In this document: positions 2,733 to 34,192 of the stretch, in pieces | Layout of the letters: every line of letters starts with the position of its first letter | How positions within the stretch are numbered: the first letter of the stretch is position 1 | Assembly (NCBI GenBank): GCA_965248925.1 | Contig: CBDFLE010000005.1 | Coordinates: forward strand, 480,001 to 544,000 | Source of the DNA: Candidatus Multivoradales bacterium | Lineage (GTDB): Bacteria; Acidobacteriota; Thermoanaerobaculia; Multivoradales; J023 | Direction of reading: 5' to 3' | Length of the DNA: 64,000 bases | Position numbers and translations under genes: made by a program | Notes under the pieces: model-generated | Database searches by the model: none | What the model was told of the DNA's origin: nothing | Seen by the model: the letters and a program-made list of their open reading frames with translations, nothing else

Positions 2733-5700
2733 GCGGCAGGCGGCTCTCCCAGCTCCGCCGCTGGGCGCTCATCTGCGGTCTCGCCCTGTGGGCATGGAGC
2801 CCCGCCGGTGCCAGTTCGATCTGCGGTGCGCGGGGCGAGAGACGGGTCGCGGCAGCTTATGAGCAGTTGTGGCAGCAACTCCGCGTGCAGGCCAGCGAAG
2901 CGGCGCAGGGGGCTCCCACGGCTGACCGGCTGGCGGCATTCCGCTATCTCATACGCCTGGCCGGCGAGGCGCCAGACCTCACCCTGATCTTGCTCGATGC
3001 CGATGGTGAACCCTATGCCTGGGGGGGGCCTGGGCTGCGCGAGGAGCTGAGGTTTGCGTCCTTGCCCAGAACCGGCATTGCTCACCACGCGAGCTATACC
3101 GCCGTCACCCTGATGGCTATCGCACCCCTGACCGCTGAGCGGCGCTCATGGCGAGTGGTGGCTGGGCGCAGCTTGGCTTATCACCGCCTGCCCTTCGGTG
3201 CCGCGGCGAGGGATCGCCATCGCTGGGCGATCGACAGCCCGCCGGCCGGCAGCACCCAGGTGCTCGAAGTAGCGGTGGAGGGGCTGCCGACCCTCTTTGT
3301 GGACTGCGCGGTGAGCGTTGAAGCGGGCGATTCGAGGAGCGCTGAGGGCCGCTTGCTCTCGCGCGGCTGGGCCTTCTGGTGGGTCGGCCTGCTGCTCTTG
3401 ATGGCGGTTGGGTGGCTGCGCCGGGTCAGCGGCGAGCGGCGGGCCAGGCAATGGCCGTTGCTGGCGACGTGGAGTGCCGCGGCGGTCGCTTTGGCGGCGT
3501 TGGGCTGGCCAGTGGCGCCAGAGTCGGCCTGCTTGCTGGCCCTCGGCTGCTGGCTGGCGGTGGCGGGTTGGTGGGGCAGCCGAAGGGATTCTCGCACCGG
3601 TGCTACGGCGCTGTTGGGAGCGTTGGCGCCAGCTCTGCTAGGAGCGGTTTGCTGGGCCAGCCAGCGGCATTTTGGTGCGCTCGACTTGGCCGGCGACTTT
3701 CTGGGTAACGCAGACGTGATGGTGCGTCGCCTGGGCTTGTGCCTGGCCATACTCGGCGCTTTGACCTGGGCTGCCGGTCGTGGTGGCCTGGGCGAGCGCC
3801 GACGATGGCTGTGGTTGGCCGCCACACTACTCACTTTGGCAGCTTGTGGCCACGACTTAACGCTGCTGGCCTGGCCTCTGGTGTGTCTGGCTGCGCTAGC
3901 GGTGGCGCTGTGGTTGCGCGGCGTCGAGTATCGCCAACGCATTGCTGCCGCCGGCCTGCTGCTGCTGCTCGCCTCGGGACTCTCGGCGGTGGTTTGGGAA
4001 TGTACCTACCGCCAGGAATTTCGCCACCTGGCAGGCGACGAGTTGCTGCAACTCCTGCTGCCGCCCACTGAGCAAGAACTCGAGAAATTACGCCTCGAAG
4101 CCTTTGATTTCTTTGATTTGCGAGAGATGAAGGATTGGGTGCCCGGAGCGGAGTCTGAACTCGATAGCAGCGACCTGGCACTACAGTTGTGGCGCCACTC
4201 GCCGCTGGCCGAACGGGACGCTTTGTCGGCCTTGGTCATCGAACCACTGCACCAAGATGCCTCCAGTTTCTCTTTCGGCCTGCCTCTGACCCCGGGCCTT
4301 TTCTACGATCAAACTCGAGACTGGCGCTCGCGCTGTAACGTGCCGTCGGTGGCCGCCTGGCAACATCCGGTGGTCTACGGCGAGCACGATCTGAACCTTG
4401 AGGGTGAGCTTTGGGGCACGGTGCGTTATTGGTTGTTGCTACGGCCGGGTTTCCGCCTGCCGGTGCGCGAAGTCGACGAGCTGTCGCGCGCGCTACTGCG
4501 GGGTGAAGCGCCGTGTCGCGAAGTGGATGGCTTACCTCGAGACCTACTCTTCGCCGTCTACGCCGCGGACGGACGTGCGGTGGCCAGTCCGTGGGAAGAG
4601 GAGCCACCACTGGAACTCGACCCGCGAGCTCAACCACGGGGCGTTGCCGCCACACCGGTGGGCCGCAGCTGGTATTGGGCGAACGCCGATGAAGAGGCGG
4701 TCGAAGTGCTCTATCTGCCACTGCTGGGCCCCTTGGAAGGCTTGGAGCGTGCCGCGACCCATGCTCTGGGGACGCTGATACCGCTGGCTTTGCTCGGTCT
4801 CTTGGGCCTTGCTCTCGCCCTCCCGAGGGCAGCTTTCAGGGCCTTCTTGTCGCGCATCTGGCGCTCCTACTCGAAGCGGCTACTGCTGGTCTTCACGGTC
4901 TTGCTGTTCGTGCCCTTGCTGGCCCTCAACTTGGTCTTGCTGAATAGCTTCGAGGATCGACTCCGGCGCGAGCAACTGGCCAAGGGGGAAGCCGCTATCG
5001 CTTCGGCACGGCTGTATTTGATCTCCTACGTGCGCGGGCTGCGGGTGGGCTTTGATTTCGAGAGTGCGATCAGCGATGAGCTGTTCGATTGGATCTCGCG
5101 GATCGTCAACCACCAGGTCAGTTTGTACTGGGGGAGCACTCGCCTGGCTTCCAGTCGGCCAGAGCTGTTCACCACCGGCTTGTTGCCGGAGCGCATCCCC
5201 GGTGAGATCTACTCCCGCTTGGCTCTTCAGGGCTATCGGGTGAGCAGCCGGGCGCGAGAGGCTGAAGATGCGTCTTATCTGGAACTCTACGCACCGCTGG
5301 GCACCGGCGACGAGGAAGGGCTGGGAGAGAGCCTGTTCATTTCCGTGCCGTTGCTCGAGCAGCAACGGGGGGTTACCCGTGAATTGGCCACGCTGCGTCG
5401 CCAAGCGGTGCTGGTGACCGCCGCATTGTTCCTCGCCCTGCTGGCGGTCGGTAGCCGTCTGGCGCGAAGTTTCACCCGCCCGATCCGCCAACTGGTGGCG
5501 GGCACTCAGAGAATTGCCGAAGGCGCTCCCGCGCTCGGCCTGGCACCCCGCGAAGAGGAGTTGGCTCTGCTCGCCGATGCGATCGATCAGATGGCCCGGC
5601 GCATCGCCGTCGGCCGCCATGCGTTGGAGCGTGAGAAGGGAGTGATGGAACGGATGGTCGAGAACATCACCTCCGGGGTGGTGTCTCTCGACCGCCAGGG

Positions 5701-6643
5701 CCGGGTGTTGCTGCACAACCGGGTAGCGATTGAGCTGCTCGGAAGCAAAGTGGGGAAACCGCTGGCCGAGACTCTGGCTGGTGAAGCGCGCCTGGCGGCG
5801 GTGGCGCGCTTCGCCGCTGAGCAAGGAAAGCTTGCGCGCCGCGGCAACATCCGTTTGACCGACGACGACGGCCAGGATCGCGAGTGGGCCTTGACTTGGG
5901 TACCGGTGCCGGGCAGCGACGATCCCGCCGCCTTGCTGGTGGTGGACGACGCCACGGAGGTGTTGCGCAGCGAGCGTCTCGAAGCCTGGGTCGAGATGGC
6001 GCGCATCATCGCCCATGAGATCAAGAACCCGCTGACTCCGATCCGTCTCTCGGCCGAGCATCTGCGCGAAGTGTGGCGGCGTCACCCTGAGCGGCTCGAC
6101 GAGGTCTTCGAGCGTTGCACCAGCAACATTCTGAAACAGGTGGAAGCCCTGCGCCTGACCGCCAGCGATTTCTCGACCTATAGTCGCGTTCCACGGGCCG
6201 AACTTGCGGCCGGTGACTTGCGCGAACCGCTGCAAGAGATCTGTGATGCCTATGCCGACTCCGCCCGCGAAGGGGTGACCCTGGAATTGCAGCTGCCCGC
6301 CGAACCAGTTCCGGCACTATTCGATTTCCGGCTGCTCGGCCGGGCTTTGCGCAATTTGCTGGAGAACGCCCTCCGTGCCAGTGGTGACGGTGGCGTTGTG
6401 GAGGTGTCCGTCGAGGCCCAGCAGGCAGCCGTCATCACCGTCCGCGACGCGGGCCCAGGGGTTGACGAGTCGGCCTTGCCGCGAATCTTCGATCCCTATT
6501 TCTCTACTCATGACACTGGCACCGGGTTGGGCTTGGCGATCACCCGGCGCATCGTCGAAGAACACGGCGGCGTGATCGAAGCTCGCAACTGGGCTGGCGG
6601 CGGGCTTGAGGTGACTATTACAATGCCCTTGGCCAATGTCTGA
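2729..6643 (+). CDS. Large multi-pass membrane sensor histidine kinase (NtrY-like: TM region, HAMP, PAS-like, HisKA, HATPase)
   Basis: H-box IAHEIKNPLTPI, N-box NLLENALRA, DAGPG, FDPYFST, GTGLGL. The ORF track starts at TTG 2867, but the frame is open back to CTG 2729, which overlaps the upstream TGA and adds a signal-peptide-like N-terminus. Confidence 0.9.
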   Translation: MSGRRLSQLRRWALICGLALWAWSPAGASSICGARGERRVAAAYEQLWQQLRVQASEAAQGAPTADRLAAFRYLIRLAGEAPDLTLILLDADGEPYAWGGPGLREELRFASLPRTGIAHHASYTAVTLMAIAPLTAERRSWRVVAGRSLAYHRLPFGAAARDRHRWAIDSPPAGSTQVLEVAVEGLPTLFVDCAVSVEAGDSRSAEGRLLSRGWAFWWVGLLLLMAVGWLRRVSGERRARQWPLLATWSAAAVALAALGWPVAPESACLLALGCWLAVAGWWGSRRDSRTGATALLGALAPALLGAVCWASQRHFGALDLAGDFLGNADVMVRRLGLCLAILGALTWAAGRGGLGERRRWLWLAATLLTLAACGHDLTLLAWPLVCLAALAVALWLRGVEYRQRIAAAGLLLLLASGLSAVVWECTYRQEFRHLAGDELLQLLLPPTEQELEKLRLEAFDFFDLREMKDWVPGAESELDSSDLALQLWRHSPLAERDALSALVIEPLHQDASSFSFGLPLTPGLFYDQTRDWRSRCNVPSVAAWQHPVVYGEHDLNLEGELWGTVRYWLLLRPGFRLPVREVDELSRALLRGEAPCREVDGLPRDLLFAVYAADGRAVASPWEEEPPLELDPRAQPRGVAATPVGRSWYWANADEEAVEVLYLPLLGPLEGLERAATHALGTLIPLALLGLLGLALALPRAAFRAFLSRIWRSYSKRLLLVFTVLLFVPLLALNLVLLNSFEDRLRREQLAKGEAAIASARLYLISYVRGLRVGFDFESAISDELFDWISRIVNHQVSLYWGSTRLASSRPELFTTGLLPERIPGEIYSRLALQGYRVSSRAREAEDASYLELYAPLGTGDEEGLGESLFISVPLLEQQRGVTRELATLRRQAVLVTAALFLALLAVGSRLARSFTRPIRQLVAGTQRIAEGAPALGLAPREEELALLADAIDQMARRIAVGRHALEREKGVMERMVENITSGVVSLDRQGRVLLHNRVAIELLGSKVGKPLAETLAGEARLAAVARFAAEQGKLARRGNIRLTDDDGQDREWALTWVPVPGSDDPAALLVVDDATEVLRSERLEAWVEMARIIAHEIKNPLTPIRLSAEHLREVWRRHPERLDEVFERCTSNILKQVEALRLTASDFSTYSRVPRAELAAGDLREPLQEICDAYADSAREGVTLELQLPAEPVPALFDFRLLGRALRNLLENALRASGDGGVVEVSVEAQQAAVITVRDAGPGVDESALPRIFDPYFSTHDTGTGLGLAITRRIVEEHGGVIEARNWAGGGLEVTITMPLANV

Positions 6644-9931: not shown

Positions 9932-10240
9932 CTACTCGCGACCAGCGGTGCTTTGGAGATATTTGAGATACCCTTCGATGTCTTCAAGGCCGTCGAGTTC
10001 TCGGATCACCGGCACAACATAGGCCAGGGATCGGATCTTGGCTAGCTTTGGTGCCTCTGGAGATCGAAGGATTCGTCGACCGGATGCGAGGAGAATGGCT
10101 GCTCTGATCTGTTCGAAGGAGACTTGCTGCTGGTGGAGATCTAGAGCGAGCACGCGGTCAGTGGGCCTTGCCTGAGCAGGGGTCTCCCGCTGCTCGAGGT
10201 AGGCTCTGAGAACCGCTTGGACGTAGTCGCACTGGCTCAT
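9932..10240 (-). CDS. Hypothetical protein coupled to istB (IS21-like element passenger)
   Basis: ATGA overlap with the istB stop. Motifs YVQAVLRAY, RPTDRVLA and IRSLAYVVPVIREL resemble a small ORF family recalled next to IS21-like genes (not verified). Confidence 0.6.
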   Translation of the reverse strand: MSQCDYVQAVLRAYLEQRETPAQARPTDRVLALDLHQQQVSFEQIRAAILLASGRRILRSPEAPKLAKIRSLAYVVPVIRELDGLEDIEGYLKYLQSTAGRE

Positions 10241-10902
10241 GACGCCTTCGCCTTTCGCCGCCGGGCACGGTCTTGTGCTCGCCGTTTCTTTTCCTCTTCT
10301 GCTTCTTTGCGCCGATAGGAGTCGCCGTCGGTGGTCAGCAGAATAGATTTCTTCTGATACCTCCGGCTTACCACCTCGAAGAGGAGGTCGGCGTGGCGAT
10401 GGTCATAGGACAGGTAGCCTAGCTCGTCAATGGCCAGCAGATCGGGCCGGGTGTAGAGGGCCAGGCGCCGCTGCAGAGCCCTGGAACTCTCTTGTGCCGC
10501 GAGGTCGTTGAGCAGCTCGCTGGCGGTGAGCATGCGTCCGGTGGCGCCCCGCAGCAGGGCCTGATAGGTGAGATTCTGAACGATCATCGACTTGCCGACG
10601 CCGTTGGGACCGAAGAGGATGACGTTGGCTCCTTCTTCGAGCCATTGGAAGTTGAAGAGGTCTTCCACCATCAGGCGATCGATCTTTCGTGGCCACTTGT
10701 AGTCGAAGTCGGCCATCGGCTTGAAGGTGCCGATGTGGGCGTTGCGGATTTCTCTCTCGAGGCTCCTCTGGTGTCGCACTATCTCCTCTCGGTCGATCAG
10801 GGGCAGCACCCAAGGCTGGTTTTGAAGTTGACTCCAATCTTCGACCAGACCGTGCAGCCCGAGCTTCTTGGCCCGGATGAGCAGATCCTCAGTCGTCGTC
10901 AT
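10237..10902 (-). pseudogene. istB: IS21-family helper ATPase IstB with an internal C-terminal deletion
   Basis: FDYKWP, Walker A GPNGVGKS, Walker B LLAIDELGYL. ILLTT joins directly to DGDSYRR, so the usual N..F.EW...DRL.H segment is absent. SD GGAGG precedes ATG 10902. Confidence 0.85.
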
Positions 10903-10995
10903 GAGGATCCTCCTGGCGGCTAAGACGGTCGTAGTCGTTGAGATCATGAGGGCGCACGTCGAGATCCCGGATTCTGGGATCTTTGGGGGGCCCAG
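10889..10995 (-). pseudogene. Probable C-terminal remnant of the IS21 transposase IstA
   Basis: KDPRIRDLDVRPHDLNDYDRL ends overlapping the istB start, like the 'L..YD.L' IstA tail. No DDE core is present upstream. Confidence 0.6.
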
Positions 10996-11291
10996 CGACA
11001 CTTAGACCTGTGCATCTGAGTTGAGCTCCCAGCTCTTCCGGTTCTTGCACTGGCCTGCGGCGATTTCCGGGAGGGTCGAACGAGAGACGTGGTCGGCTGT
11101 GGTGGACTGGGGCCTTGCGCATGGGCTGTCGAGATGCCGAGTCTATTTCTCGATGGTGATAAGCAAATCGCTGGAAACAAGAGACTTGAAGGCGGCACGG
11201 TGGCTGCAGGCATGCATGGCGGCGAAATATCTGCTCTGGGCGGCGATTTCGGCGTCGTCCAGGGGGCTGGAACTCCTGCTTTCATCGATAT

Positions 11292-19417: not shown

Positions 19418-19446
19418 TTGCACAGTCGCCCAAAGCCCGGTAGGCT
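19418..19446 (+). promoter_or_regulatory. Sigma70-type promoter for the cus leader ORF (probably leaderless mRNA)
   Basis: TTGCAC (19418-19423), 17-nt spacer, TAGGCT (19441-19446), then ATG 7 nt later at 19454 with no SD. Confidence 0.65.
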
Positions 19447-19453
19447 TATGGAC

Positions 19454-19891
19454 ATGTCGTCACGCTCGCTCGCTGGAGTCCTCATTCTGCTTCTTTTCGC
19501 CGCGCCGCTCGGTGCGTCGGTGTGCGGTGGATGTGGTCCCGAGCACTGTCAGATGGCTGGCATGGCTGGCATGGTTGGGGCGTCAGGGATCAGCGAGCCA
19601 GCAGCTGGGGATCACTGTCCGGCTGCCGGAGATGCCGCTGAGCAGGCAGCTCCTTGCGTCTCTCTGGGGTCGGTAAGAGTTGTTGCCGGCTGCTGCGTGG
19701 TTGAGGCGGCTCGAGAATCAGAGAGTAGCTCCACAGCAGTTGTTTCGACCTCTCTTGACTCCGTTTTCGAGCTTGCTCTAGCGATTGATGCTCGGGTCCT
19801 CGGGCCTCTCTTCGCCGCGAGCCGGCTGGAGGCCCCGCCGCGCCTGGCCCTCCAGCCCCTTTACACCCTGTACAGTTCCCTGCTGATTTGA
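19454..19891 (+). CDS. Secreted Cys/Met/His-rich leader protein with a C-terminal PP motif (DUF2946/HYC_CC_PP-like)
   Basis: Signal peptide MSSRSLAGVLILLLFAAPLGA; CGGC..HC.MAGMAGM, HC and CC motifs; ends EAPPRLALQPLYTLYSSLLI. First gene of the cus-like operon. Confidence 0.75.
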   Translation: MSSRSLAGVLILLLFAAPLGASVCGGCGPEHCQMAGMAGMVGASGISEPAAGDHCPAAGDAAEQAAPCVSLGSVRVVAGCCVVEAARESESSSTAVVSTSLDSVFELALAIDARVLGPLFAASRLEAPPRLALQPLYTLYSSLLI

Positions 19892-19959
19892 TTCACCTTT
19901 CGGCGTAGTGCGTTCCGCGTCTTTCGACGCGTGATCACCCCTACTCGGAAGGAGAATCA
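19889..19959 (+). promoter_or_regulatory. Stem-loop sequestering the SD and start of the TolC-family gene
   Basis: UGAUUC-A-CCUUUCGG-C-GUAG (19889-19908) pairs with CUAC-UCGGAAGG-A-GAAUCA (19941-19959). Inner hairpin CGCGUC[UUUC]GACGCG. Confidence 0.7.
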
Positions 19960-21350
19960 TGTTGCTCAAGGAGTTTGTGCCTTTACTGGTCGCGTACCAG
20001 GTTTTCGGGTTCGGCGTTCCTAGTATGGCGCCAGCGGAGTTGCCCTCGCAGCTTGCCGGTGAGGGGTTGGTGGCCGAGGGTGGACTGCTGCTCGGCGGCC
20101 CGACGGGCGCTTTGATCGCCGGCCAAGAATCCGCCGCGCTGCGGCAGGTGGGGAAGGAAGTGTTAGCCCGCCACCCTGGGATTGCTCGTGCGCGGCGGCA
20201 GGCCGCGGCAGCTGCCGCGCGGGCGCCACAGGTGCGTTCCTTGCCCGATCCGGTGGCGGCCCTGACTCTCTTTGCGCTGCCGCCTGAGACTCGGGTTGGC
20301 CCGCAGCGGCTGAGCGCATCGATTCGGCAGAGATTCCCCTGGTTCGGCAAGCTGGCCCTCAAGGAACAAGCAGCCCTCTACGATGCGGCGGCTGTCGCAG
20401 CCAAGGTAGAGGTATTGCGGCTCGATGTGCTCACTGAAGTGCGGCGGCTGGTGCTTGAGTTGAGCTTTCTCGACTCCCACCAGGCGATTGTCGGTGGGGA
20501 GCGCGGCACTCTGGTGCGGTTTGAGCAGGCGGCTCAGGCGCGCTACTCGGCGGGCACCGGATTGCAGCAGGAGAGCGTGCGCATCCAGGCGCAGATCACC
20601 CGTACAGACACTCGCTTGTTGAACATCGCCGAGCGCCGAGCTTCGCTGCTGGCCACGCTCAATGCCCTGCGCGATCGGCCGGCGGATCAGGGGGTGGCAG
20701 GGGTGCAACCGCCGGTCCCAAGCCAGCCGCTCTTCGATCGCCAAGAATTGGGCCGAGAAGCCCGCTCGCGGCGACCCGAAATGGCGGTAGCGATCGCTGA
20801 AGTTGCCGCGGCAGCAACTCGAGTGGAGCTGGCCGAAAAGAGCTTCCATCCCGATTTCACTCTCGGTTTCTCTTACACGGCAGTGGGCAAACGCCGCGAT
20901 GCAGCGGGCCGCGCGACTCCACCCTCGGGCAACGGTGACGACATTCTCGCCCTTACCGGCTCTCTCAACCTGCCGGTGTGGCGGCGCAAGTTGGTGGCCG
21001 GGGTCGAAGAAGCCCAGGCCAACCATTGGGCGGCGCAAGAGAAGAAGCGCGAAGTCCTCGCCGGTATCGAGCGCTCGATCGGCGATCTCACCGCCCGCAT
21101 GCCGTTGCTTTTCGAGCATTGGCGGCTGCTCGATACGGTGCTGCGAGTTCAAGCACGGGAGGCGTTGCGCTCGGCCGAAACCGCTTACAGCACGGGCAAG
21201 CTGAACGCGGTAGATCTGCTCGATGCTGAGGTCGTGCTCTTCGATGTCCGCATCGCCACGGCTCGTACTCGCACCGATCTCGCCATAGCTCAAGCCGAAT
21301 TAGAGCGCGCAGTTGCTCACTCGCTGCTACCTGTCCAGGAGGGTCTATAG
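19959..21350 (+). CDS. TolC-family outer membrane efflux protein (CusC-like)
   Basis: SLPDP...QRFPWFGKL, ARYSAG, PDFTLG, LNLPVW, AYSTGK...DLLDAE. SD AAGGAG; precedes MFP and RND genes. Confidence 0.9.
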   Translation: MLLKEFVPLLVAYQVFGFGVPSMAPAELPSQLAGEGLVAEGGLLLGGPTGALIAGQESAALRQVGKEVLARHPGIARARRQAAAAAARAPQVRSLPDPVAALTLFALPPETRVGPQRLSASIRQRFPWFGKLALKEQAALYDAAAVAAKVEVLRLDVLTEVRRLVLELSFLDSHQAIVGGERGTLVRFEQAAQARYSAGTGLQQESVRIQAQITRTDTRLLNIAERRASLLATLNALRDRPADQGVAGVQPPVPSQPLFDRQELGREARSRRPEMAVAIAEVAAAATRVELAEKSFHPDFTLGFSYTAVGKRRDAAGRATPPSGNGDDILALTGSLNLPVWRRKLVAGVEEAQANHWAAQEKKREVLAGIERSIGDLTARMPLLFEHWRLLDTVLRVQAREALRSAETAYSTGKLNAVDLLDAEVVLFDVRIATARTRTDLAIAQAELERAVAHSLLPVQEGL

Positions 21351-21351
21351 C

Positions 21352-22809
21352 ATGTCCGATGAGAATGTTGGCAAGATGAGTCCACGAAGCGTGATGTTTC
21401 TGGCCGTTGCCCTCATCGCCGGGGTGCTGCTGGCGCAGTTGCTGCCACCCGACCTCTTGGGCTTGCGGCACCGATCCACTTCTGTGAGCGGTGAACCCGA
21501 GGTTGCGGTCGATGGCCAGCTGTGGACCTGTGGCATGCACCCGCACGTGATCGAGCACGAGTCGGGGCAGTGTCCGATTTGCGGTATGAACCTGGTGCCC
21601 ATGCGAGGTCTGGATGGCGCCGAGCCCATCCCCGATCAAGTGGCGCAGCCGGAACTGCTCTTCTACCGCAATCCGATGGACCCATCCATCACCTCGCCGG
21701 TGCCGGCCCAGGACAGCATGGGGATGGCCTATGTGCCGGTCTACAGCGATCCCGGGGCTGTTCCAGGGGCTGCTCTAGGTGCTGGATCGGGAGCGACAGT
21801 GCGTATTGACCCGGCGGTGGTGCAGAACATGAATGTCCGCACCGAGATCGTCGAGCGTCGCGACCTCACCCAGCCGATCCGCACCGTCGGCTACCTGGAG
21901 TACGACCAGCAACGGATGGTCACGGTGACCACCAAGTACTCGGGTTGGGTCGAGAAGGTCTACGTCAACTACGTCGGCGAGAAGGTGCGCCGCGGCCAGC
22001 CCCTGTTCGAGGTCTACTCCCCCGAGCTGGTGCAGACCGAGCAGGAGCTGCTGTCGGCGTTGGAATTCGCCCGCCAGCTGGCCGACGCGCCGGAGGATGC
22101 GCGCGCGCGTGCCGAGTCGCTGGTCGATTCGGCACGCACCCGGCTCGGCTATTGGGATATCTCACCGCGGCAGATCGCCGTCCTGGAGGAAACCGGTGAG
22201 GTCTTCCGCACCCTCAAGGTGGCGGCCAAGTCCGGCGGCTTGGTGATGAAGCGGATGGCCGGCCTGGAAGGCATGGCGATCAAGCCGGGGATGAAGATCT
22301 TCCACATTGCCGACCTGTCGAGCTTGTGGATCTCGGCGGAGCTTTTCGAAGACCAGGTCGCTTGGGTGCGGGAAGGCACCCCCGCCGAGATCGCCCTGGC
22401 CTATTTCCCCGGCAAAAATTTCACCGGCAAGGTGCGTTTCCTCGAGCCCGAGTTGTCGGAGAAGACCCGCACCATGCGGGCCAAGATCGAAGTGCCCAAC
22501 CCCGGCGGCCGGCTGCGCAAGGGGATGTTCGCGACGGTGGAGTTTCAACCGGTGATCGTTCGCGATGCGGTGGCGGTGCCGGCGCAGGCGGTGCTGCGCA
22601 CCGGGCTGCGCAACGTGGTGGTGGTCGCTCTCGGCGAGGGGCGTTTCGTGCCGCGGGAGGTCATCATTGGTCACGAGGCCGAAGGCTATGCCCAGATCCT
22701 CAACGGTCTCGAAGCGGGAGTGGAGGTGGTCACCTCGGCCCAGTTCCTGCTCGATTCCGAATCCAAGCTGCGGGAAGCGATCCAGAAGATGATCGCCGGT
22801 CGTTCGTAG
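21352..22809 (+). CDS. cusB: CusB-type RND periplasmic adaptor with two heavy-metal-binding modules
   Basis: WTCGMHP...CPICGMNLVP and YRNPMDP..SPVP..DSMGM.YVPVY modules; YSPEL..EQE, IADLS.LW, FLLDSES.L. Confidence 0.9.
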   Translation: MSDENVGKMSPRSVMFLAVALIAGVLLAQLLPPDLLGLRHRSTSVSGEPEVAVDGQLWTCGMHPHVIEHESGQCPICGMNLVPMRGLDGAEPIPDQVAQPELLFYRNPMDPSITSPVPAQDSMGMAYVPVYSDPGAVPGAALGAGSGATVRIDPAVVQNMNVRTEIVERRDLTQPIRTVGYLEYDQQRMVTVTTKYSGWVEKVYVNYVGEKVRRGQPLFEVYSPELVQTEQELLSALEFARQLADAPEDARARAESLVDSARTRLGYWDISPRQIAVLEETGEVFRTLKVAAKSGGLVMKRMAGLEGMAIKPGMKIFHIADLSSLWISAELFEDQVAWVREGTPAEIALAYFPGKNFTGKVRFLEPELSEKTRTMRAKIEVPNPGGRLRKGMFATVEFQPVIVRDAVAVPAQAVLRTGLRNVVVVALGEGRFVPREVIIGHEAEGYAQILNGLEAGVEVVTSAQFLLDSESKLREAIQKMIAGRS

Positions 22810-22819
22810 GGGACAAGCA

Positions 22820-25800
22820 ATGCTCAACCGTGTCATCGAGTGGTCTCTCAAGAATCAGCTGCTGGTTCTGGTGGCCCTGCTGTTGGCCGTCCTTGGCGGT
22901 GTCTGGTCGATCAGCGAGACCCGCGTCGACGCCATTCCTGATCTGTCCGATGTGCAGGTGATCATCTACACTGAGTTCCCCGGGCAGGCTCCACAGGTGA
23001 TCGAGGATCAGGTCACCTACCCGCTGACCTCTAAAATGCTGGCAGTACCTTTCGCCAAGGTGGTGCGCGGCTACTCCTTCTTCGGCTTCTCGTTTGTCTA
23101 CGTGATCTTCGAAGACGGCACCGATCTCTACTGGGCGCGCTCGCGAGTGCTCGAATACCTCTCGGCGCTGGCCGGCAAGTTGCCGCCGGGAGTGACGCCG
23201 CAACTCGGCCCCGATGCCACCGGGGTTGGCTGGGCCTTCATGTACGTGCTCAACTCGCCGCAGCGTTCGCTGGCCGAACTCCGCAGCTATCAGGATTGGT
23301 ACCTGCAATATGGCTTGTCGTCGGTGGAGGGAGTTTCGGAAGTGGCGTCGATCGGTGGATTTGTGCGCCAATACCAAGTAGAGGTCGACCCGGTGCGGCT
23401 GCGCGCCTACAGCATGCCGCTGAAGAGGATCAAGCGAGCTATTCAACAGTCCAACATCGACGTCGGTGGTCGTCTTTTGGAGATCGCCGAGCGCGAATAC
23501 ATGGTCCGCGGCAGGGGCTATATCAAGGGTGTGGAGGATCTCGAGAATATTGTGCTGTCGGTGGGTCCAGGTGGCGTGCCGGTGCTGCTCAAGGATGTCG
23601 CTCGGGTGGTCATTGGCCCGGACGTTCGCCGCGGTCTGGCGGATTGGAACGGCGAAGGGGAGACGGTGGGCGGCATCGTCGTGGTGCGCTCCGGCGCCGA
23701 CACCCGCACCACCATTCAGCGGGTCAAGGAGAAGCTCGAGGAGCTCAAGGCCGGGCTGCCGGACGATGTCGAGATCGAGGTGGCCTACGACCGCAGTGGC
23801 CTGATCGAGCGTTCCATCGCCACCCTCATCGATACTTTGATCGAAGAGCTGGTGGTGGTCTCATTGATCTGCATCCTCTTCCTCTTCCACTTCCGTTCCG
23901 CTTTCGTCGCCATCGTCTCGATTCCGCTGTCGATCTTGCTGGCTTTTATTCTGATGCGCTGGCAGGGGCTGGGGGCCAACATCATGTCCTTGGGGGGGAT
24001 CGCCATCTCGATCGGGGTGTTGGTCGACGCCGCCATCATCATGGTGGAGAACGCCCACAAGCATTACGAGGAGTGGCAGGGCAAGCGATCTCACTTCGAG
24101 ATTATCTTGCGTTCGGCGCAGGAGGTCGGGCCGACCCTCTTCTTCACCTTGCTGGTGATCACCGTCTCCTTCATGCCGGTGTTCACCTTGCAAGCTCAGG
24201 AGGGCAGACTGTTCAGTCCTCTGGCCTTCACCAAGACTTTTGCCATGGGCATGTCGGCGATCTTGGCGGTGACCGTGGTGCCGGTACTGATGTATTGGTT
24301 TGTGCGCGGCAAGATCCACGGCGAAGCCAAGCATCCGGTATCGCGGCTGCTGCGCTTTCTCTACACCCCGGTCTTGCATCTGGCGTTGCGTTGGCGCTGG
24401 CAGGTGATCATCGCCATGGCGGTGATTCTGGCGGTGACGGTGATTCCTCTGCGGCGCATCGGCTCGGAGTTCATGCCGCCGCTATGGGAAGGAGACCTGC
24501 TCTACATGCCGACCACCTTCCCCGGTCTGTCGATCACCAAGGCGAAGGAGATCTTGCAGCAGACCGACAAGATCATCCGCACTTTCCCGGAGGTGGAATC
24601 GGTCTTCGGCAAGGTTGGCCGGGCCGAGACCGCCACCGATCCGGCGCCCCTATCGATGATCGAGACCACCATCGTGCTCAAAGATCCGAGCGAGTGGCGG
24701 CCGGGGCTGACCCGCGATGAGCTGATCGCCGAGCTCGATAGAGCGGTGCAGATTCCGGGTCTCACCAACGCCTGGACGATGCCGATCAAGACCCGTATCG
24801 ACATGCTTTCCACCGGCATCAAGACACCGGTGGGGATCAAGATCGGTGGCCCGGACCTGCGCACCTTGGAAGGCATCGCCAAGCGGGTCGAAGCGGTGGT
24901 CAAGCCCTTGCCCGGCACCCTCTCGGCCTATGCCGAAAGGGTCATGGGTGGCAGCTACTTGGACTTCGACATCGACCGCCAAGCGGCCGCCCGTTTCGGC
25001 CTCAATGTCGGCGATGTTCAAGATGTCATCCGCTCCGCCGTCGGCGGCATGAACGTCTCCTGGACGGTCGAAGGGCTGGAGCGCTATCCGATCAACGTGC
25101 GCTACCCGCGGGAGCTGCGCGACAGCCCGGCGGCCCTCGGTGAGATCCTGGTGGCAACTCCGGCGGGAGGGCAAGTGCCGCTCAAGCAGCTCGCCAAGCT
25201 CGAGCTGCGCGATGGGCCGCCGGGCATCAAGTCCGAGGGTGCCCGCCCCAACGCCTGGATCTATGTCGACCTGCGGGGTGTCGATGTCGGCTCGTGGGTC
25301 GAGCGGGCCAAGGAGGAGGTGGCTGCCCAGGTGGAGATACCGCCCGGCTACACCATCTTCTGGTCGGGTCAGTACGAGTACATGCAGCGGGCCAAGGCTC
25401 GGCTGCTGCTCATCGTGCCGATCACTCTCTTGCTGATCTTCCTGATCCTCTACTTCCACACCCAGTCGGTCATCAAGACCGCCATCGTCTTGTCGGCGAT
25501 CCCCTTCTCCTTGGTGGGCTCGGTCTGGCTGATGGATTTCTTGGGTTACAACTGGTCGGTGGCAGTGATCGTCGGCCTGATCGCCCTGGCCGGGCTGGCG
25601 GCCGAGACCGGAGTGGTGATGCTGCTCTACCTCGATATCGCCTACGACCGCTGGCAGGAGCAGGGCCGCATGCTCAGCTTCTCGCATCTGCGTGAGGCGG
25701 TCGATCACGGCGCCGTGCAGCGCATCCGGCCGAAGATGATGACTGTCGCCGCCACCTTCTTCTCCCTGGTACCGATCCTCTGGGCCACCGGCACCGGCTC

Positions 25801-25981
25801 CGACGTCATGCGGCGTATCGCCGCGCCGATGGTCGGCGGGGTCTTCACCTCCTTCCTGGCGGAGTTGGTGGTGTTTCCGGCCATCTACTTCATCTGGCGC
25901 GGAGTCGGCCTGCAAAGAACGGCCCTTTTCGCCACTGTCGAGCGGTTGCAACCGACCGCAGAACCAGGAGATAGCCAATGA
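22820..25981 (+). CDS. cusA: CusA-type Cu/Ag RND efflux pump
   Basis: DAIPDLSDVQVI, EDQVTYPL, LGPDATGVGW, NIMSLGGIAI, GSEFMPPL.EG, AWTMPIKTRIDML, RIRPKMMT. Confidence 0.95.
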   Translation: MLNRVIEWSLKNQLLVLVALLLAVLGGVWSISETRVDAIPDLSDVQVIIYTEFPGQAPQVIEDQVTYPLTSKMLAVPFAKVVRGYSFFGFSFVYVIFEDGTDLYWARSRVLEYLSALAGKLPPGVTPQLGPDATGVGWAFMYVLNSPQRSLAELRSYQDWYLQYGLSSVEGVSEVASIGGFVRQYQVEVDPVRLRAYSMPLKRIKRAIQQSNIDVGGRLLEIAEREYMVRGRGYIKGVEDLENIVLSVGPGGVPVLLKDVARVVIGPDVRRGLADWNGEGETVGGIVVVRSGADTRTTIQRVKEKLEELKAGLPDDVEIEVAYDRSGLIERSIATLIDTLIEELVVVSLICILFLFHFRSAFVAIVSIPLSILLAFILMRWQGLGANIMSLGGIAISIGVLVDAAIIMVENAHKHYEEWQGKRSHFEIILRSAQEVGPTLFFTLLVITVSFMPVFTLQAQEGRLFSPLAFTKTFAMGMSAILAVTVVPVLMYWFVRGKIHGEAKHPVSRLLRFLYTPVLHLALRWRWQVIIAMAVILAVTVIPLRRIGSEFMPPLWEGDLLYMPTTFPGLSITKAKEILQQTDKIIRTFPEVESVFGKVGRAETATDPAPLSMIETTIVLKDPSEWRPGLTRDELIAELDRAVQIPGLTNAWTMPIKTRIDMLSTGIKTPVGIKIGGPDLRTLEGIAKRVEAVVKPLPGTLSAYAERVMGGSYLDFDIDRQAAARFGLNVGDVQDVIRSAVGGMNVSWTVEGLERYPINVRYPRELRDSPAALGEILVATPAGGQVPLKQLAKLELRDGPPGIKSEGARPNAWIYVDLRGVDVGSWVERAKEEVAAQVEIPPGYTIFWSGQYEYMQRAKARLLLIVPITLLLIFLILYFHTQSVIKTAIVLSAIPFSLVGSVWLMDFLGYNWSVAVIVGLIALAGLAAETGVVMLLYLDIAYDRWQEQGRMLSFSHLREAVDHGAVQRIRPKMMTVAATFFSLVPILWATGTGSDVMRRIAAPMVGGVFTSFLAELVVFPAIYFIWRGVGLQRTALFATVERLQPTAEPGDSQ

Positions 25982-27237
25982 TCGAGATCCTCTTTGACAC
26001 TGACCCGACCCGCGGAGACCTCAGCCGCGCTGGCTTCACCTTGTTGGCGTTCACCCTGATGCTCGCCGCTTGCTCAGTGCAGCCCGGTTCGCAACCCCAG
26101 GACCCGGACGCGCCCGCGGTGGCGCGTAGCGGAATTCGTTTCATCGACCCGCCGTCGGGTTCCGGGGCGATGGCGCCCAGCCTGACCACGGGCCAAGACG
26201 GCGCCCTGCTGAGCTGGCTCGAGCCGACGGCCAGCGGCCACACTCTGTACTTCGCTGAATTTGCAGGTGAGAGCTGGTCGGCGCCGCTGCAAATTGCCTC
26301 CGGCGAAGCATTCTTTGCCAATTGGGCAGACTTGCCGCAGCTGGTGGTGTCCGCCGAGGGCACCCACTTTGCCCACTGGTTGCAGAAGTTGGGCGAGGAC
26401 ACTTATGCCTACGGCGCTTCCTTGGCGCGCTCGCGAGACGGCGGTGAGAGCTGGCAGCAGCTTGGCCTGCTGCACGACGACGCCACCCCGGCCGAGCACG
26501 GCTTCGTCTCGTACGCGCCGCTGGCCAGTGGTGGAGTGCAGGCATTCTGGCTCGATGGCCGGCTGATGCCCGGCGGCGGCGATATGCAGCTGCGCACCAG
26601 CTGGCTCGGCGAGGGCGCGGTCGAGGCCAGCACCCTGCTCGATGATCGGGTGTGCGAATGCTGCGCCACCGACGCGGCGACCACCAGCGCCGGTCCGGTG
26701 GTGGTTTACCGCGATCGTAGTTCGACGGAGATTCGCGATATCGCCCTCATTCGCGCAACCAGTGACGGCTGGAGCAAGCCTGTGGTGATCCATCAAGACG
26801 GGTGGCAGATTCAAGGCTGCCCGGTGAACGGTCCGGCGATTGCGGCCCAGGGCAATCGGGTCGCGGTTGCGTGGTTTTCCGCCGCGGGCGAACAGCCGAC
26901 GGTCAAACTGGCGTTTTCAAGCGATGCTGGAGCCCACTTTGCGGCGCCGATCTCGGTGGATGACACCAAGCCAATGGGGCGAGTCGACGTGATTCTCGAT
27001 CAGCGCGGGCTGGCGGTTGTTAGCTGGATGGGCCCAACAAGTGGTGGCGCGGAGATTCGCTGGCGCCAGATTGCTATCGACGGCGAGCGCGGTGCCGTGC
27101 AGATTGTTGCCGCGACCACGGCTGCGCGTTCGGCCGGCGTATCGAAGATGGCGCCCTGGGGCGATGGAATGCTCTTCGCTTGGGTCGAAGACGGCAAGCC
27201 CAGTCGCCTACGGACTGGCCTCGTCGGGTTGCGGTAG
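25978..27237 (+). CDS. Lipoprotein with a BNR/sialidase-like beta-propeller, copper-cluster associated
   Basis: LAA-C lipobox; Asp-boxes SRDGGESW and SSDAGAHF; CECC and GCPVNGP motifs; ATGA-coupled to cusA. Confidence 0.75.
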   Translation: MIEILFDTDPTRGDLSRAGFTLLAFTLMLAACSVQPGSQPQDPDAPAVARSGIRFIDPPSGSGAMAPSLTTGQDGALLSWLEPTASGHTLYFAEFAGESWSAPLQIASGEAFFANWADLPQLVVSAEGTHFAHWLQKLGEDTYAYGASLARSRDGGESWQQLGLLHDDATPAEHGFVSYAPLASGGVQAFWLDGRLMPGGGDMQLRTSWLGEGAVEASTLLDDRVCECCATDAATTSAGPVVVYRDRSSTEIRDIALIRATSDGWSKPVVIHQDGWQIQGCPVNGPAIAAQGNRVAVAWFSAAGEQPTVKLAFSSDAGAHFAAPISVDDTKPMGRVDVILDQRGLAVVSWMGPTSGGAEIRWRQIAIDGERGAVQIVAATTAARSAGVSKMAPWGDGMLFAWVEDGKPSRLRTGLVGLR

Positions 27238-27404
27238 GAGTTCCTGGAGGAGTCGAAGTCGGGGTGGGTCATCGAGAGCTGCTTTGCTTTCCGGTTTACC
27301 TGGTAAGGGATATTCGAGGTACCTGCCCGTGAGCCTCAGCGTGGGGTACAGCGAGACCCTGGAACCCGTTTCGAGAGAAGATATCTAGGTGCAACGTACT
27401 CTCC

Positions 27405-27660
27405 TCAGCTGGCTGCAGGGAGGACCCGGAGTCCGAGTTCGGCAGCGCAGTTCCGGACTTGCTGGTCGAGGGTCGGGAGGTAGGTTTCGGGGTTCGTTGT
27501 CGCGGTGTGAAGAACGCTGCGAGGTGGAGGGCGTCGAGCGAGCGGATCGGCGGTCCTGGAAACGACTGCCGCGCCCGTTCGACAATCGGGTCGCTGAAGG
27601 GGAGCAGAATCCAGCTCTCGGCCAACCGCCCGAGTTCAGTGCAAAGATCGGCGAAGCAGT
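27405..27660 (-). pseudogene. VapC/PIN toxin C-terminal remnant (frameshifted)
   Basis: IVERARQSFPGPPIRSLDALHLA, then in another frame TLDQQVRNCAAELGLRVLP*. The N-terminal half is missing. Confidence 0.75.
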
Positions 27661-27689
27661 GCGGCGATAGATCACCGAGGCTGTGGGCG

Positions 27690-27819
27690 CGGTGGAAGGC
27701 GCGCTCAAATCGGCTACAACCTTGCCGTGGGAAGAGACTCGGATCCTTGCACCGGCTCGGACACGGCGAATGTACTCACTGAAGTGGCTCTTCAGCTTGC
27801 GAATGCCGACGGTGTCCTT
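27690..27819 (-). pseudogene. Phd/YefM antitoxin remnant
   Basis: Manual translation gives (K)DTVGIRKLKSHFSEYIRRVRAGARIRVSSHGKVVADLSAP. AAG sits where the start ATG is expected, and there is no other in-frame start. Confidence 0.75.
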
Positions 27820-33012: not shown

Positions 33013-33720
33013 TTAGCCCGGCGGTTCCATCGTCGGACCTTGTTCGCTGTCCGAGGACCTGAGGTGTTGATAGATCGCCGCGCCGATCAATGCACCCGAG
33101 ATCGGGCCCAGCCAGTAAAGCCAATGATCCTGCCAAGTTGCCGACAGCAAGGCGGGGCCGAAGGAGCGCGCCGGGTTCATCGAGGCACCGCTGATCGGTC
33201 CACCCCACAGCGCGCCGAGGGCCACCACCGAACCGATGGTGATCGCCGCCAACTCGCCGACCGCGCGGGTATCGGTGGCCACCGCCGTGATGCTGAACAT
33301 CAAGGTGGCAGTCAGCAGTGTTTCGAGAGCTAGAGATTGAAGCGATGAGCCCGTTGGCACGGTCGCGCCGAGTGCCGCCTGGTCACCAAAGAGCCCGAGC
33401 AAGACCGCCGCCCCAAGGCTCGCACCAAGCAGCTGCGCCGCTATGTAGGCAGGCACCTCACGTAGCGGAAAGTGGCGAATGGTGGCGAAGGCGAGGGTCA
33501 CCGCGGGATTCAGGTGAGCGCCGGAGATGTGTCCGGTGACCGCCACCATGACGGTGATCACCAGGCCAAACGCCAGCGCGACGCCGAGATGCCCCAGGGC
33601 GCCGGTCTGGGATTGGACGACGATGGCGCCACAGCCAGCGGTGACCAAGGCAAAAGTGCCCAACGCCTCGGCAAATAGCCGATGCCGGAGGAAAGTTCCG
33701 CCGCGGTTCCCAGCGCTCAC
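33013..33720 (-). CDS. MIP/aquaporin family channel (probable arsenite channel)
   Basis: AEALGTF, ISGAHLNPAVT, SGASMNPARSFGPA, HWLYWLGP. GTGA overlap with arsR. Confidence 0.92.
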   Translation of the reverse strand: MSAGNRGGTFLRHRLFAEALGTFALVTAGCGAIVVQSQTGALGHLGVALAFGLVITVMVAVTGHISGAHLNPAVTLAFATIRHFPLREVPAYIAAQLLGASLGAAVLLGLFGDQAALGATVPTGSSLQSLALETLLTATLMFSITAVATDTRAVGELAAITIGSVVALGALWGGPISGASMNPARSFGPALLSATWQDHWLYWLGPISGALIGAAIYQHLRSSDSEQGPTMEPPG

Positions 33721-34043
33721 AGAGCCGCCGTCAGAACCTTGAGGCGTTCTATCGTCCGCTCCGCTAGGCAGTAGCAAACCCGCGGGGCCTCGACCTCGCC
33801 TCGCACCAGTCCGGCTTGCTTCAGGGTCCGCAAATGCTGCGAGACGGTCGATTGAGCGAGGGGAATGTGAAGCACGATCTCGCCACAGAGGCAACTACCT
33901 CGCCGCGCCAGCAAGCGCAGGATTCGCAAGCGAACGGGATGCCCCAGGGCCTTGAATAGCTCAGCCAGCTCCACATCTGCCGCGTCCCCCTCGAGGGGGC
34001 GAGTGTCAGTTTCCGGCGGGCAGGTACAGCTTTCATCGCTCAT
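33717..34043 (-). CDS. arsR: ArsR/SmtB family metalloregulator
   Basis: N-terminal CTC, FKALGHPVRLRIL, SCLCGEIV, LAQSTVSQHLR.LK.AGLV, RVCYC. Confidence 0.92.
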   Translation of the reverse strand: MSDESCTCPPETDTRPLEGDAADVELAELFKALGHPVRLRILRLLARRGSCLCGEIVLHIPLAQSTVSQHLRTLKQAGLVRGEVEAPRVCYCLAERTIERLKVLTAAL

Positions 34044-34081
34044 CGTAGATGTACGATAAAGGCTGTAGAACCGGCTGTCAA
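34042..34081 (-). promoter_or_regulatory. arsR promoter with a palindromic operator
   Basis: TTGACA (34081-34076), 17-nt spacer, TATCGT (34058-34053). Perfect inverted repeat ATCGTA-N4-TACGAT (34042-34057) overlaps the -10 and the start codon. Confidence 0.8.
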
Positions 34082-34192
34082 TCCACGCTCTCCAAGGAAG
34101 CAGGGCGTTAAGAGCCCGATCGTGTTGTCCAGTCGATTGAAGAAACTGGCTCAATGTCGAGCAAGCCCCGCCCCGCGGAGGGCGCCGCTAAC

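Follow-up and report, generated by a model that had tools for sequence, protein, structure and literature searches.

How is a copper/silver efflux operon controlled when no dedicated regulator sits beside it, and why should a small exported protein be encoded directly ahead of the pump? These questions are raised by a 64,000-nt stretch of Candidatus Multivoradales contig CBDFLE010000005.1 (hereafter the window, whose positions are used throughout), in which a 145-aa leader open reading frame (ORF, 19454-19891) heads a predicted cusCBA-type copper/silver efflux operon. A sequence-only reading had proposed that the leader and an RNA stem between it and the first efflux gene form a metal-sensing translational switch. 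Our comparison of related loci indicates that leader, stem and pump genes are a real, conserved regulatory unit. The explanation that we prefer, and to which we would commit about half of our confidence, is a CutF-like, cis-acting exported sensor: the translating ribosome would dwell at the leader stop codon and, with metal, open the ribosome-binding site (RBS) of cusC. The elements concerned, all on the plus strand, are the following.

19418..19446, plus strand: predicted σ70-type promoter; −35 TTGCAC at 19418-19423, 17-nt spacer, −10 TAGGCT at 19441-19446.
19454..19891, plus strand: leader ORF of 145 aa, predicted to be exported and largely disordered; ATG 19454, UGA 19889-19891.
19454..19519, plus strand: signal peptide assigned by inspection, its end approximate; a hydrophobic N-terminus is present in all aligned leaders.
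19523..19696, plus strand: cysteine motifs C24xxC27..C32, H54-C55 and C80-C81, a putative metal/disulfide sensor.
19835..19840, plus strand: Pro128-Pro129 within a variable proline-rich stretch, 16 codons ahead of the stop.
19856..19891, plus strand: C-terminal tail P-L-Y-T-L-(H/Y)-S-S-L-L-I plus UGA, a candidate termination-stage arrest element.
19889..19959, plus strand: predicted RNA stem; 5′ arm 19889-19908 pairing with 19941-19959, inner hairpin 19916-19931.

The promoter, the ATG at 19454, the UGA at 19889, the Shine-Dalgarno (SD) sequence, the ATG at 19959 and the ORF motifs all lay where the sequence-only reading had placed them; the translation of 19454-19891 carries CGGC..HC, MAGMAGM, HC and CC and ends EAPPRLALQPLYTLYSSLLI. 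The segment 19860-19975 folded at −38.7 kcal/mol (z-score −3.49), and none of 200 shuffled sequences was as stable. The 3′ side of the predicted stem spans the SD GGAAGGAG (19947-19954) and the A of the AUG at 19959. Counted from U19889, which pairs with A19959, the stem comprises 6 + 8 + 4 = 18 pairs, the length of about 18 bp claimed earlier; its start exactly at the UGA was borne out less strictly, with a few weak extra pairs predicted in the last leader codons.

A single-sequence homologue search with the leader (437 candidates) gave none at E 10, and relatives were found through the TolC gene, a route independent of the leader, and through a profile. A TolC match was present in 54 of 61 related genomes. 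The first TolC set held 30 loci (the window included): 27 carried a leader, one lay at a contig edge and two lacked it (L018 and L025), and in the genomes of these two a second TolC copy does carry a leader (L185 and L182). Among the 16 loci of the second set, 13 had a leader, two distant paralogues (~29-30% identity) had none and one was cut short. The leader thus preceded the TolC gene in 40 of 44 assessable loci (27/29 and 13/15).

Pairing of the leader end with the downstream RBS was equally persistent. At least 5 expected pairs between the 15 nt from the stop to +14 and the RBS were found in 25/27 and 12/13 loci, compared with 11/150 control gene pairs from the genome of the window. The intergenic length varied from 63 to 184 nt, and the arm stayed at the stop. 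With 90 nt of coding sequence included in the fold, the anti-RBS arm at positions 0 to +14 from the stop averaged 10.4 pairs and the interval −60 to −31, the place of a ribosome stalled at the Pro-Pro (PP) pair, 0.16; the control values were 0.5 and 0.9. The stop codon was UGA in 40/40 leaders of the clade, compared with 1573/2633 long ORFs of the genome, probably because UGA pairs with the UCA that ends in the A of the AUG; exactly this pairing appeared in 11/27 minimum-energy folds. An RF2-specific need for UGA across the family was rejected, as leaders of other phyla use all three stops. In an alignment of 22 regions (the five longest omitted), the structure derived from the window was paired in 80% of cells, compared with 73.7% after shuffling and 30-56% for slid controls, and double-change cells numbered 36 against 16.4 in shuffled alignments. 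By these comparisons (37/40 loci against 11/150 controls, and the excess of double changes), the stem is conserved and covarying in the clade, as the earlier reading had expected.

A ribosome footprint model indicated where such a stem could be opened. Opening the RBS was predicted to cost 17.6 kcal/mol without a ribosome, 17.4-17.6 kcal/mol when Pro129 occupies the P site, and 6.4-10.4 kcal/mol when UGA occupies the A site. The earlier argument that a ribosome paused at the PP stands too far away to melt the stem was therefore upheld, both by this cost and by the position of the arm at 0 to +14.

The leader protein itself diverges rapidly outside a few elements. When 25 of the first 27 leaders were aligned (two were omitted, their starts being unclear), mean column identity was 24%; a hydrophobic N-terminus was kept, as were C32, C55, C80, C81 and the tail. 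C55 and C80 were invariant, and C32 and C81 were present in at least 90%. Methionines were not conserved in these 25 leaders, and Met-richness is lineage-specific. Of the Cys/Met-rich character noted earlier, the cysteines are the conserved part, and a Met-rich segment as the conserved sensor was rejected. No Pfam or NCBIfam family was found for the protein. An AlphaFold model had a single confident part, a helix at residues 2-24 (pLDDT 85), and predicted no folded domain (predicted template-modelling score 0.25). In the ESM Atlas, the neighbours were unnamed clusters together with DUF8199, DUF6769, DUF6660 and DUF2946 clusters at 0.92-0.93; shared-feature counts were low, and these matches serve as leads only.

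The last 11 residues stood out, with a mean pairwise identity of 53% compared with 11% for the preceding spacer (ungapped). Their consensus is P-L-[YF]-T-L-H-S-x-[LF]-L-I-stop. The codons vary at their third positions, and Ser at −5 is encoded by AGY in some leaders and by TCN in others; this synonymous variation points to selection on the peptide, and a purely RNA-level constraint was rejected. A transmembrane anchor was rejected as well, the tail having 10 residues and, by inspection, no basic residues after them. Residues fixed relative to the stop and selected as peptide, the signature expected of a termination-arrest element, were thus present. PP occurred in the last 30 residues of 19/27 orthologous leaders and 122/150 profile relatives, and was missing from 8/27 leaders that still keep the tail, the UGA/stem and the CC spacing; one of these eight (L030) has no proline at all in its last 24 residues. 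The last PP was spread from −12 to −19, and RAPP/RGPP appeared in 7/150 profile relatives.

The last CC lay 61-81 residues ahead of the C-terminus (coefficient of variation 0.08; 64 in the window), compared with 36-113 residues (0.26) from the N-terminus to CC. A chain of about 50 extended residues is described as reaching the periplasm when it starts at the peptidyl transferase centre, with LepB folding pulling at ~70 (10.1101/2021.02.06.430026), and disulfide folding of PhoA as transmitting force (PMC7513700). A CC-to-end length of 61-81 residues would thus place CC just outside the membrane when the ribosome is at the stop. This ruler supports co-translational sensing and does not choose between the PP and the stop as the site of the pause.

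Transcription probably begins close to the leader ATG, which lies seven bases past the −10 box. A TAnnnT hexamer was present 5-9 nt ahead of the start codon in 22/25 orthologous leaders, compared with 147/7875 random ATGs, and TTG stood 16-18 nt above it in 15 orthologous leaders, compared with 11/7875 random ATGs. The −10-like hexamer being conserved so near the start codon, the leader mRNA is probably leaderless. The promoter proposed earlier thus gained support from conservation, although each of its hexamers has 3/6 matches to consensus and a consensus promoter scan missed it.

To what extent is this design known? Just two metal-sensing leader peptides are known to have been tested, CutF and CruR, both stalling at proline motifs. 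CutF of Rhodobacter capsulatus ends PEPEGPPPRL, and copper is reported to induce stalling, whereupon a stem-loop opens (10.1101/2025.02.05.636593, PMC9973294); its stem is also described as influencing cutFOG mRNA stability (PMC8456105). The window leader shares with CutF a small Sec-exported, Cys-containing first ORF with a copper-detoxifying gene downstream, a short intergenic stem-loop that hides the next SD (here computed and compared across loci), and about 45 residues from the Cys motif to PP. It differs in that the prolines of CutF, 2-4 residues from the stop, are the stall site, whereas the PP here is 16 codons off and optional, and in carrying a conserved hydrophobic/His tail after PP, with CC rather than CxxxC as the best-kept motif. 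No profile match was found. A published survey counted 5334 CutF-like proteins, many from Bacteroidota, filtering for PP in the last 15 residues, and its commonest neighbours were OEP/CusC genes (Ozturk 2023, PMC9973294). The window leader agrees with the rules of that survey on length (<150 aa; 145 aa), on a same-strand neighbour within 1000 nt (67 nt) and on the Sec signal, judged here from inspection and the structure-model helix only. Its PP, at −18/−17, lies outside the last 15 residues; 55/150 relatives have PP within them.

CruR of Bordetella pertussis carries CXXC and RAPP, and copper is described as relieving its arrest, after which Rho terminates transcription (Roy 2022, PMC9426467). 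Both leaders are first ORFs, poorly structured, with copper genes downstream and a Cys motif whose spacing from a C-terminal motif is conserved. CruR uses RAPP and Rho, is switched off by copper, controls uptake and has a 162-nt intergenic region; the window leader, unlike it, has EAPP at −20..−17 in place of RAPP, 67 nt, an SD-covering stem and an efflux operon. The CXXC is present as C24GGC27, and in just 77/150 profile relatives. By analogy, the window leader most likely works like CutF. The likening of the leader to CutF and CruR on an RND pump held in the comparison; that such leaders precede genes for RND outer-membrane proteins had been reported before (Ozturk 2023, PMC9973294).

The profile searches suggested earlier gave no family membership. 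DUF2946 (PF11162) did not match the window protein and reached only E 0.71 in 1/25 aligned leaders; HYC_CC_PP (NF047658) did not match the window protein at E 0.1, and 0/25 aligned leaders reached its 28-bit cut-off. Among 25 of the best 150 profile relatives, no Pfam leader-type family was found; the best HYC_CC_PP score was 25.3 bits (relative P0107), and CopL gave E 0.02-0.04. HYC_CC_PP proteins nevertheless resemble the window leader in signal peptide, Cys motif, PP, a similar terminal tail and CusA, HMA-like and TonB-type neighbours. In 25/26 Bacteroidota-side members inspected, CC lay 68-78 residues from the end (98 in the other), with the limit that the members were chosen by a profile that itself fixes this spacing. 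The window protein has CC at 64, PP at −18 and the tail; the H-[YF]-C motif, as read from the family name and members, is absent, EHC and DHC being the only counterparts. Three leaders selected by their tails (L040, L041 and L081) pass the HYC_CC_PP cut-off, with the profile reaching 130-131 of its 131 positions, and a profile comparison of the window family with L040 aligned the last 13 residues only. By profile, the window protein is a member of neither family, yet it has the layout and tail of HYC_CC_PP.

Arrest at termination has precedents: PepNL is described as arresting at UGA (PMC11890864) and TnaC as blocking RF2 (PMC8450073). The window leader has, like them, key residues at fixed distances from the stop and, in the clade, UGA throughout; PepNL and TnaC are short cytoplasmic peptides, with neither export nor a metal link in these descriptions. 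RAPP/RGPP leaders before metal genes have been surveyed and are reported to be absent for copper genes in Bacteroidota (PMC12992588). The tail, the stop-anchored stem, the ruler and a stop-codon mechanism for such leaders were not found in the mostly open-access literature searched, where a literal-motif search gave an irrelevant match; the Bacteroidota cluster logos of Ozturk 2023 (PMC9973294, Fig. S6) may already show the tail.

The tail could be followed far beyond the clade. A profile search found 241 proteins at E 0.001, and in the best 150 of these the C-terminus kept L−10 in 134, L−7 in 136, H−6 in 116 and L−2 in 145, counts that are circular because the profile contains the tail. The whole-leader profile matched in 5/301 genomes of the phylum, all of one order, so that beyond it the tail can be traced but the protein as a whole cannot. 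When the tail by itself was sought as a DNA pattern, with a stop or TGG allowed at its end, at least 117 stretches were returned, and the figures that follow refer to the matches listed: 85 fell in open frames of 90 codons or more and 32 in short chance frames, with TGG replacing the stop in 0/85 long and 4/32 short frames. The long-frame matches mostly look like exported leaders from about ten phyla as labelled: Acidobacteriota, Bacteroidota (including Ignavibacteria), Planctomycetota, Methylomirabilota/Rokubacteria, Gemmatimonadota, Zixibacteria, Verrucomicrobiota, Desulfobacterota, Nitrospirota and Proteobacteria. In 78 non-duplicate leaders the stops were 35 TGA, 28 TAG and 15 TAA; CC was present in 54/78, at 59-92 residues from the end. 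Full flanks were available for 57 long-frame loci; after removal of 4 duplicates and of 1 locus that lacked a downstream ORF, 52 downstream proteins remained. By Pfam, these 52 comprised 24 OEP, 5 SulP, 3 CusF, 3 further cytochrome c, and one each of DabA, CusB, multicopper oxidase, ZnuA, HMA, YHS, HMBD, methyltransferase, SHOCT and YfiR, with 7/52 lacking a family. When the last codons were included, 8 bp of RBS pairing was predicted in 33/48 loci, compared with 26/200 controls.

Several variants of this arrangement were observed. The tail's own pyrimidine-rich codons, not bases past the stop, are predicted to pair with the RBS in L031, L034, L040, L041, L058, L081, L084, L088, L090, L094, L095 and L109. 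In Cyclobacteriaceae-labelled records and a relative, SulP or DabA genes are preceded by tail-bearing exported leaders that are acidic and poor in Cys (L038, L042, L053, L059, L063, L105 and L178); the signal sensed there would not be copper, and a profile of the acidic leaders matched in 2/81 genomes of their order. His-rich tail leaders, mostly from Rokubacteria/Methylomirabilota (L035, L043, L048, L065, L068, L072, L084 and L097), precede CusF, cytochrome c, OEP and one ZnuA uptake gene, and the last would need the opposite polarity. The genome of the window holds a second tail leader (L201, C6:1512557-1513099, minus strand), which is His-rich, ends PPPLFTTHCSLLI-UGA and precedes a TolC/adaptor operon; a local hairpin begins at its UGA, after which come an SD and a 5-codon ORF. 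The TolC-like gene lies ~390-410 nt on, and L201 is possibly an interrupted or differently wired copy.

We tentatively suggest, while thinking it rather doubtful, that P-L-[YF]-x-L-H-x-x-[LF]-L-I-stop is a force-sensitive termination arrest peptide, a plug-in module used in about ten phyla with a 60-70-residue ruler and interchangeable periplasmic sensors. These sensors would be Cys-rich for Cu/Ag efflux, His-rich for Zn/Co/Ni efflux, CusF, cytochrome c and ZnuA, and acidic and Cys-poor for SulP and the DabA inorganic-carbon transporters. Such a module, if real, would supply the HYC_CC_PP family with the mechanism it lacks, and would correspond to RAPP/RGPP peptides where a lineage has none of these.

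Under the mechanism that we prefer for the window locus, the leader would be translated from a leaderless mRNA and threaded co-translationally through Sec. With the ribosome at UGA, CC, ~64 residues off, would lie just beyond the membrane and the last 11 residues in the exit tunnel, where the tail may make the ribosome dwell. The dwelling ribosome would cover exactly the 5′ arm of the stem and free the cusC SD and AUG, allowing the pump to be translated. Without copper or silver, the cysteines would fold or oxidise, the chain would be pulled and released fast, and the stem would re-form; with metal bound, the dwell would be longer and efflux on. This CutF polarity is suggested by the function of the operon and the CutF precedent. 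The anatomy, its conservation, the covariation, the peptide-level selection of the tail and the fixed spacing are the established part of the model; stalling, the metal response and cis action are what we infer by analogy.

Several observations count against this explanation. RNAalifold found no consensus pair on the same gappy 22-row MAFFT alignment, the structure tested for covariation was derived from the window itself and so has an advantage over the slid controls, and the compared loci are kin, not independent. The modelled RBS is merely half open even with UGA in the A site, and a low-confidence structure model built on 25 sequences is weak evidence of disorder. The tail of the window itself has Tyr where most carry His. 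The non-polar C-terminus can simply be a degradation signal, as Roy 2022 suggested for CruR (PMC9426467). Across phyla, pairing of at least 5 bp between the stop..+14 segment and the RBS was found in only 18/48 of the listed loci, whose starts were picked automatically, with 8 loci dropped as duplicates or for want of a usable start. The distance from CC to the first PP, moreover, is as tight as that from CC to the stop (42-58 residues, mostly 45-48; standard deviation 3.9, n=19) and equals the 45 residues of CutF, and P is enriched at −18/−17 (73 and 94 of 150 profile relatives).

These last points favour a PP checkpoint or a two-step hybrid, in which the proline stretch 16-18 codons before the stop is the metal-gated site: without metal the ribosome would stall at PP with the stem shut, metal-induced folding would relieve the stall (the CruR polarity), and the ribosome would run on to UGA, where coupling would open the stem and the tail would add no more than a constitutive pause. 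PP is also part of the HYC_CC_PP name and present in most members fetched, CruR offers a described case of copper-relieved stalling with conserved spacing (PMC9426467), and a ribosome at PP is unable to open the stem itself. PP is, however, absent from 8/27 orthologous leaders, 28/150 profile relatives and 18/78 of the listed cross-phylum leaders, RAPP/RGPP is rare, the last PP wanders, and the tail is far better conserved. The pause that the sequence-only reading had placed at PP thus kept its tight spacing and lost its universality, and we regard a metal gate at PP as possible, on the unlikely side. The leader may instead do no sensing on the ribosome, being a short-lived or chaperone-like periplasmic metal peptide whose tail is a protease/PDZ signal and whose stem serves plain coupling, with metal control, if any, exerted transcriptionally by a regulator elsewhere. 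The hydrophobic C-terminus, with the remark on degradation signals by Roy 2022 (PMC9426467), would fit this, as would the four MerR genes of the genome and the fact that plain coupling also needs a stem at the stop codon. We consider it improbable: it leaves unexplained a CC-to-stop length that stays fixed while the spacer retains 11% identity, conservation 10 residues deep, the missing fold and the first place of such leaders in operons of very different function. MerR-type promoters, furthermore, have a long spacer, whereas the spacer here is 17 nt (16-18 among the leaders). The least probable alternative to our mind is that mRNA survival is the output, the dwell at the leader end controlling Rho-dependent termination or decay and the stem being secondary. 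CruR and the effect of the stem on cutFOG mRNA stability are precedents (PMC9426467, PMC8456105), and 15/48 of the listed cross-phylum loci lack strong RBS pairing; yet in the clade the arm pairs with both SD and AUG through compensatory changes, which termination control would not need, and a consensus promoter/terminator scan found no intrinsic terminator.

If dwelling at the stop codon is right, the locus represents a second, sequence-distinct leader design, with the pause at the stop codon, the arm under the terminating ribosome and the sensor at a fixed trans-membrane distance. It would explain control of metal efflux without an adjacent CusRS or CueR in many Acidobacteriota, Bacteroidota, Planctomycetota and other little-studied bacteria, give a function to the annotated yet unexplained HYC_CC_PP family, and bring an exported case into the small group of termination-arrest peptides. 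Since the general class has been published, as has its link to RND pumps, the surprise is limited; the tail, its reach and the non-metal contexts are the new part.

The genes behind the leader are consistent with a CusCBA system, as an outer membrane efflux protein, a CusB adaptor and a CusA-type pump lie within one operon:

19959..21350, plus strand: TolC/CusC-type outer membrane efflux protein (PF02321), 67 nt after the leader.
21313..22809, plus strand: CusB-type adaptor with a heavy-metal-binding domain (NF007303 at E 1e-44, below its cut-off; PF16576, PF19335), its likely start being ATG 21355.
22820..25981, plus strand: CusA-type RND pump (TIGR00914, above cut-off).
25978..27237, plus strand: fourth gene, an exported BNR-repeat-like protein overlapping the cusA stop (BNR at E 0.014, a weak match).

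The bit score of the pump was 1185 with E. coli CusA as reference and 565 with ZneA, and three Met-containing site motifs, which we take to be the metal site, align with those of E. coli CusA. In agreement with the earlier statement that the island lacks CusRS and CueR, the region from 18 to 34 kb of the window showed neither a sensor kinase nor a response regulator nor a MerR protein. An ArsR gene lies at 33717-34154 and a histidine kinase at 2867-6643, and the four MerR genes are elsewhere in the genome; the pump operon may be under a distant transcriptional regulator.

A second small exported leader lies in the window at 32974-32636 (minus strand). It has 112 aa, is His-rich, matches no Pfam or NCBIfam family and ends GIDRPPQV, with a proline motif 2 residues from the stop, nearer the CutF/RAPP type. 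It stands 160 nt ahead of a CzcB-type adaptor (32475), followed by a CusA/CzcA-family pump (31200); this operon has no TolC gene, and its fold has a z-score of only −1.71. An ArsR regulator and a MIP-family channel (33013-34154, minus strand) lie immediately upstream of this leader, and transcription of this arsenic-type unit may extend into the second efflux operon. Short ORF pieces at 27296-27708 (minus strand), between the two operons, include a 'SLDALHLAA' segment; they resemble a broken PIN-domain toxin gene, and had no Pfam match at 1e-6. Farther away, an IS21-type IstB ATP-binding gene at 9932-11001 (minus strand) appears truncated.

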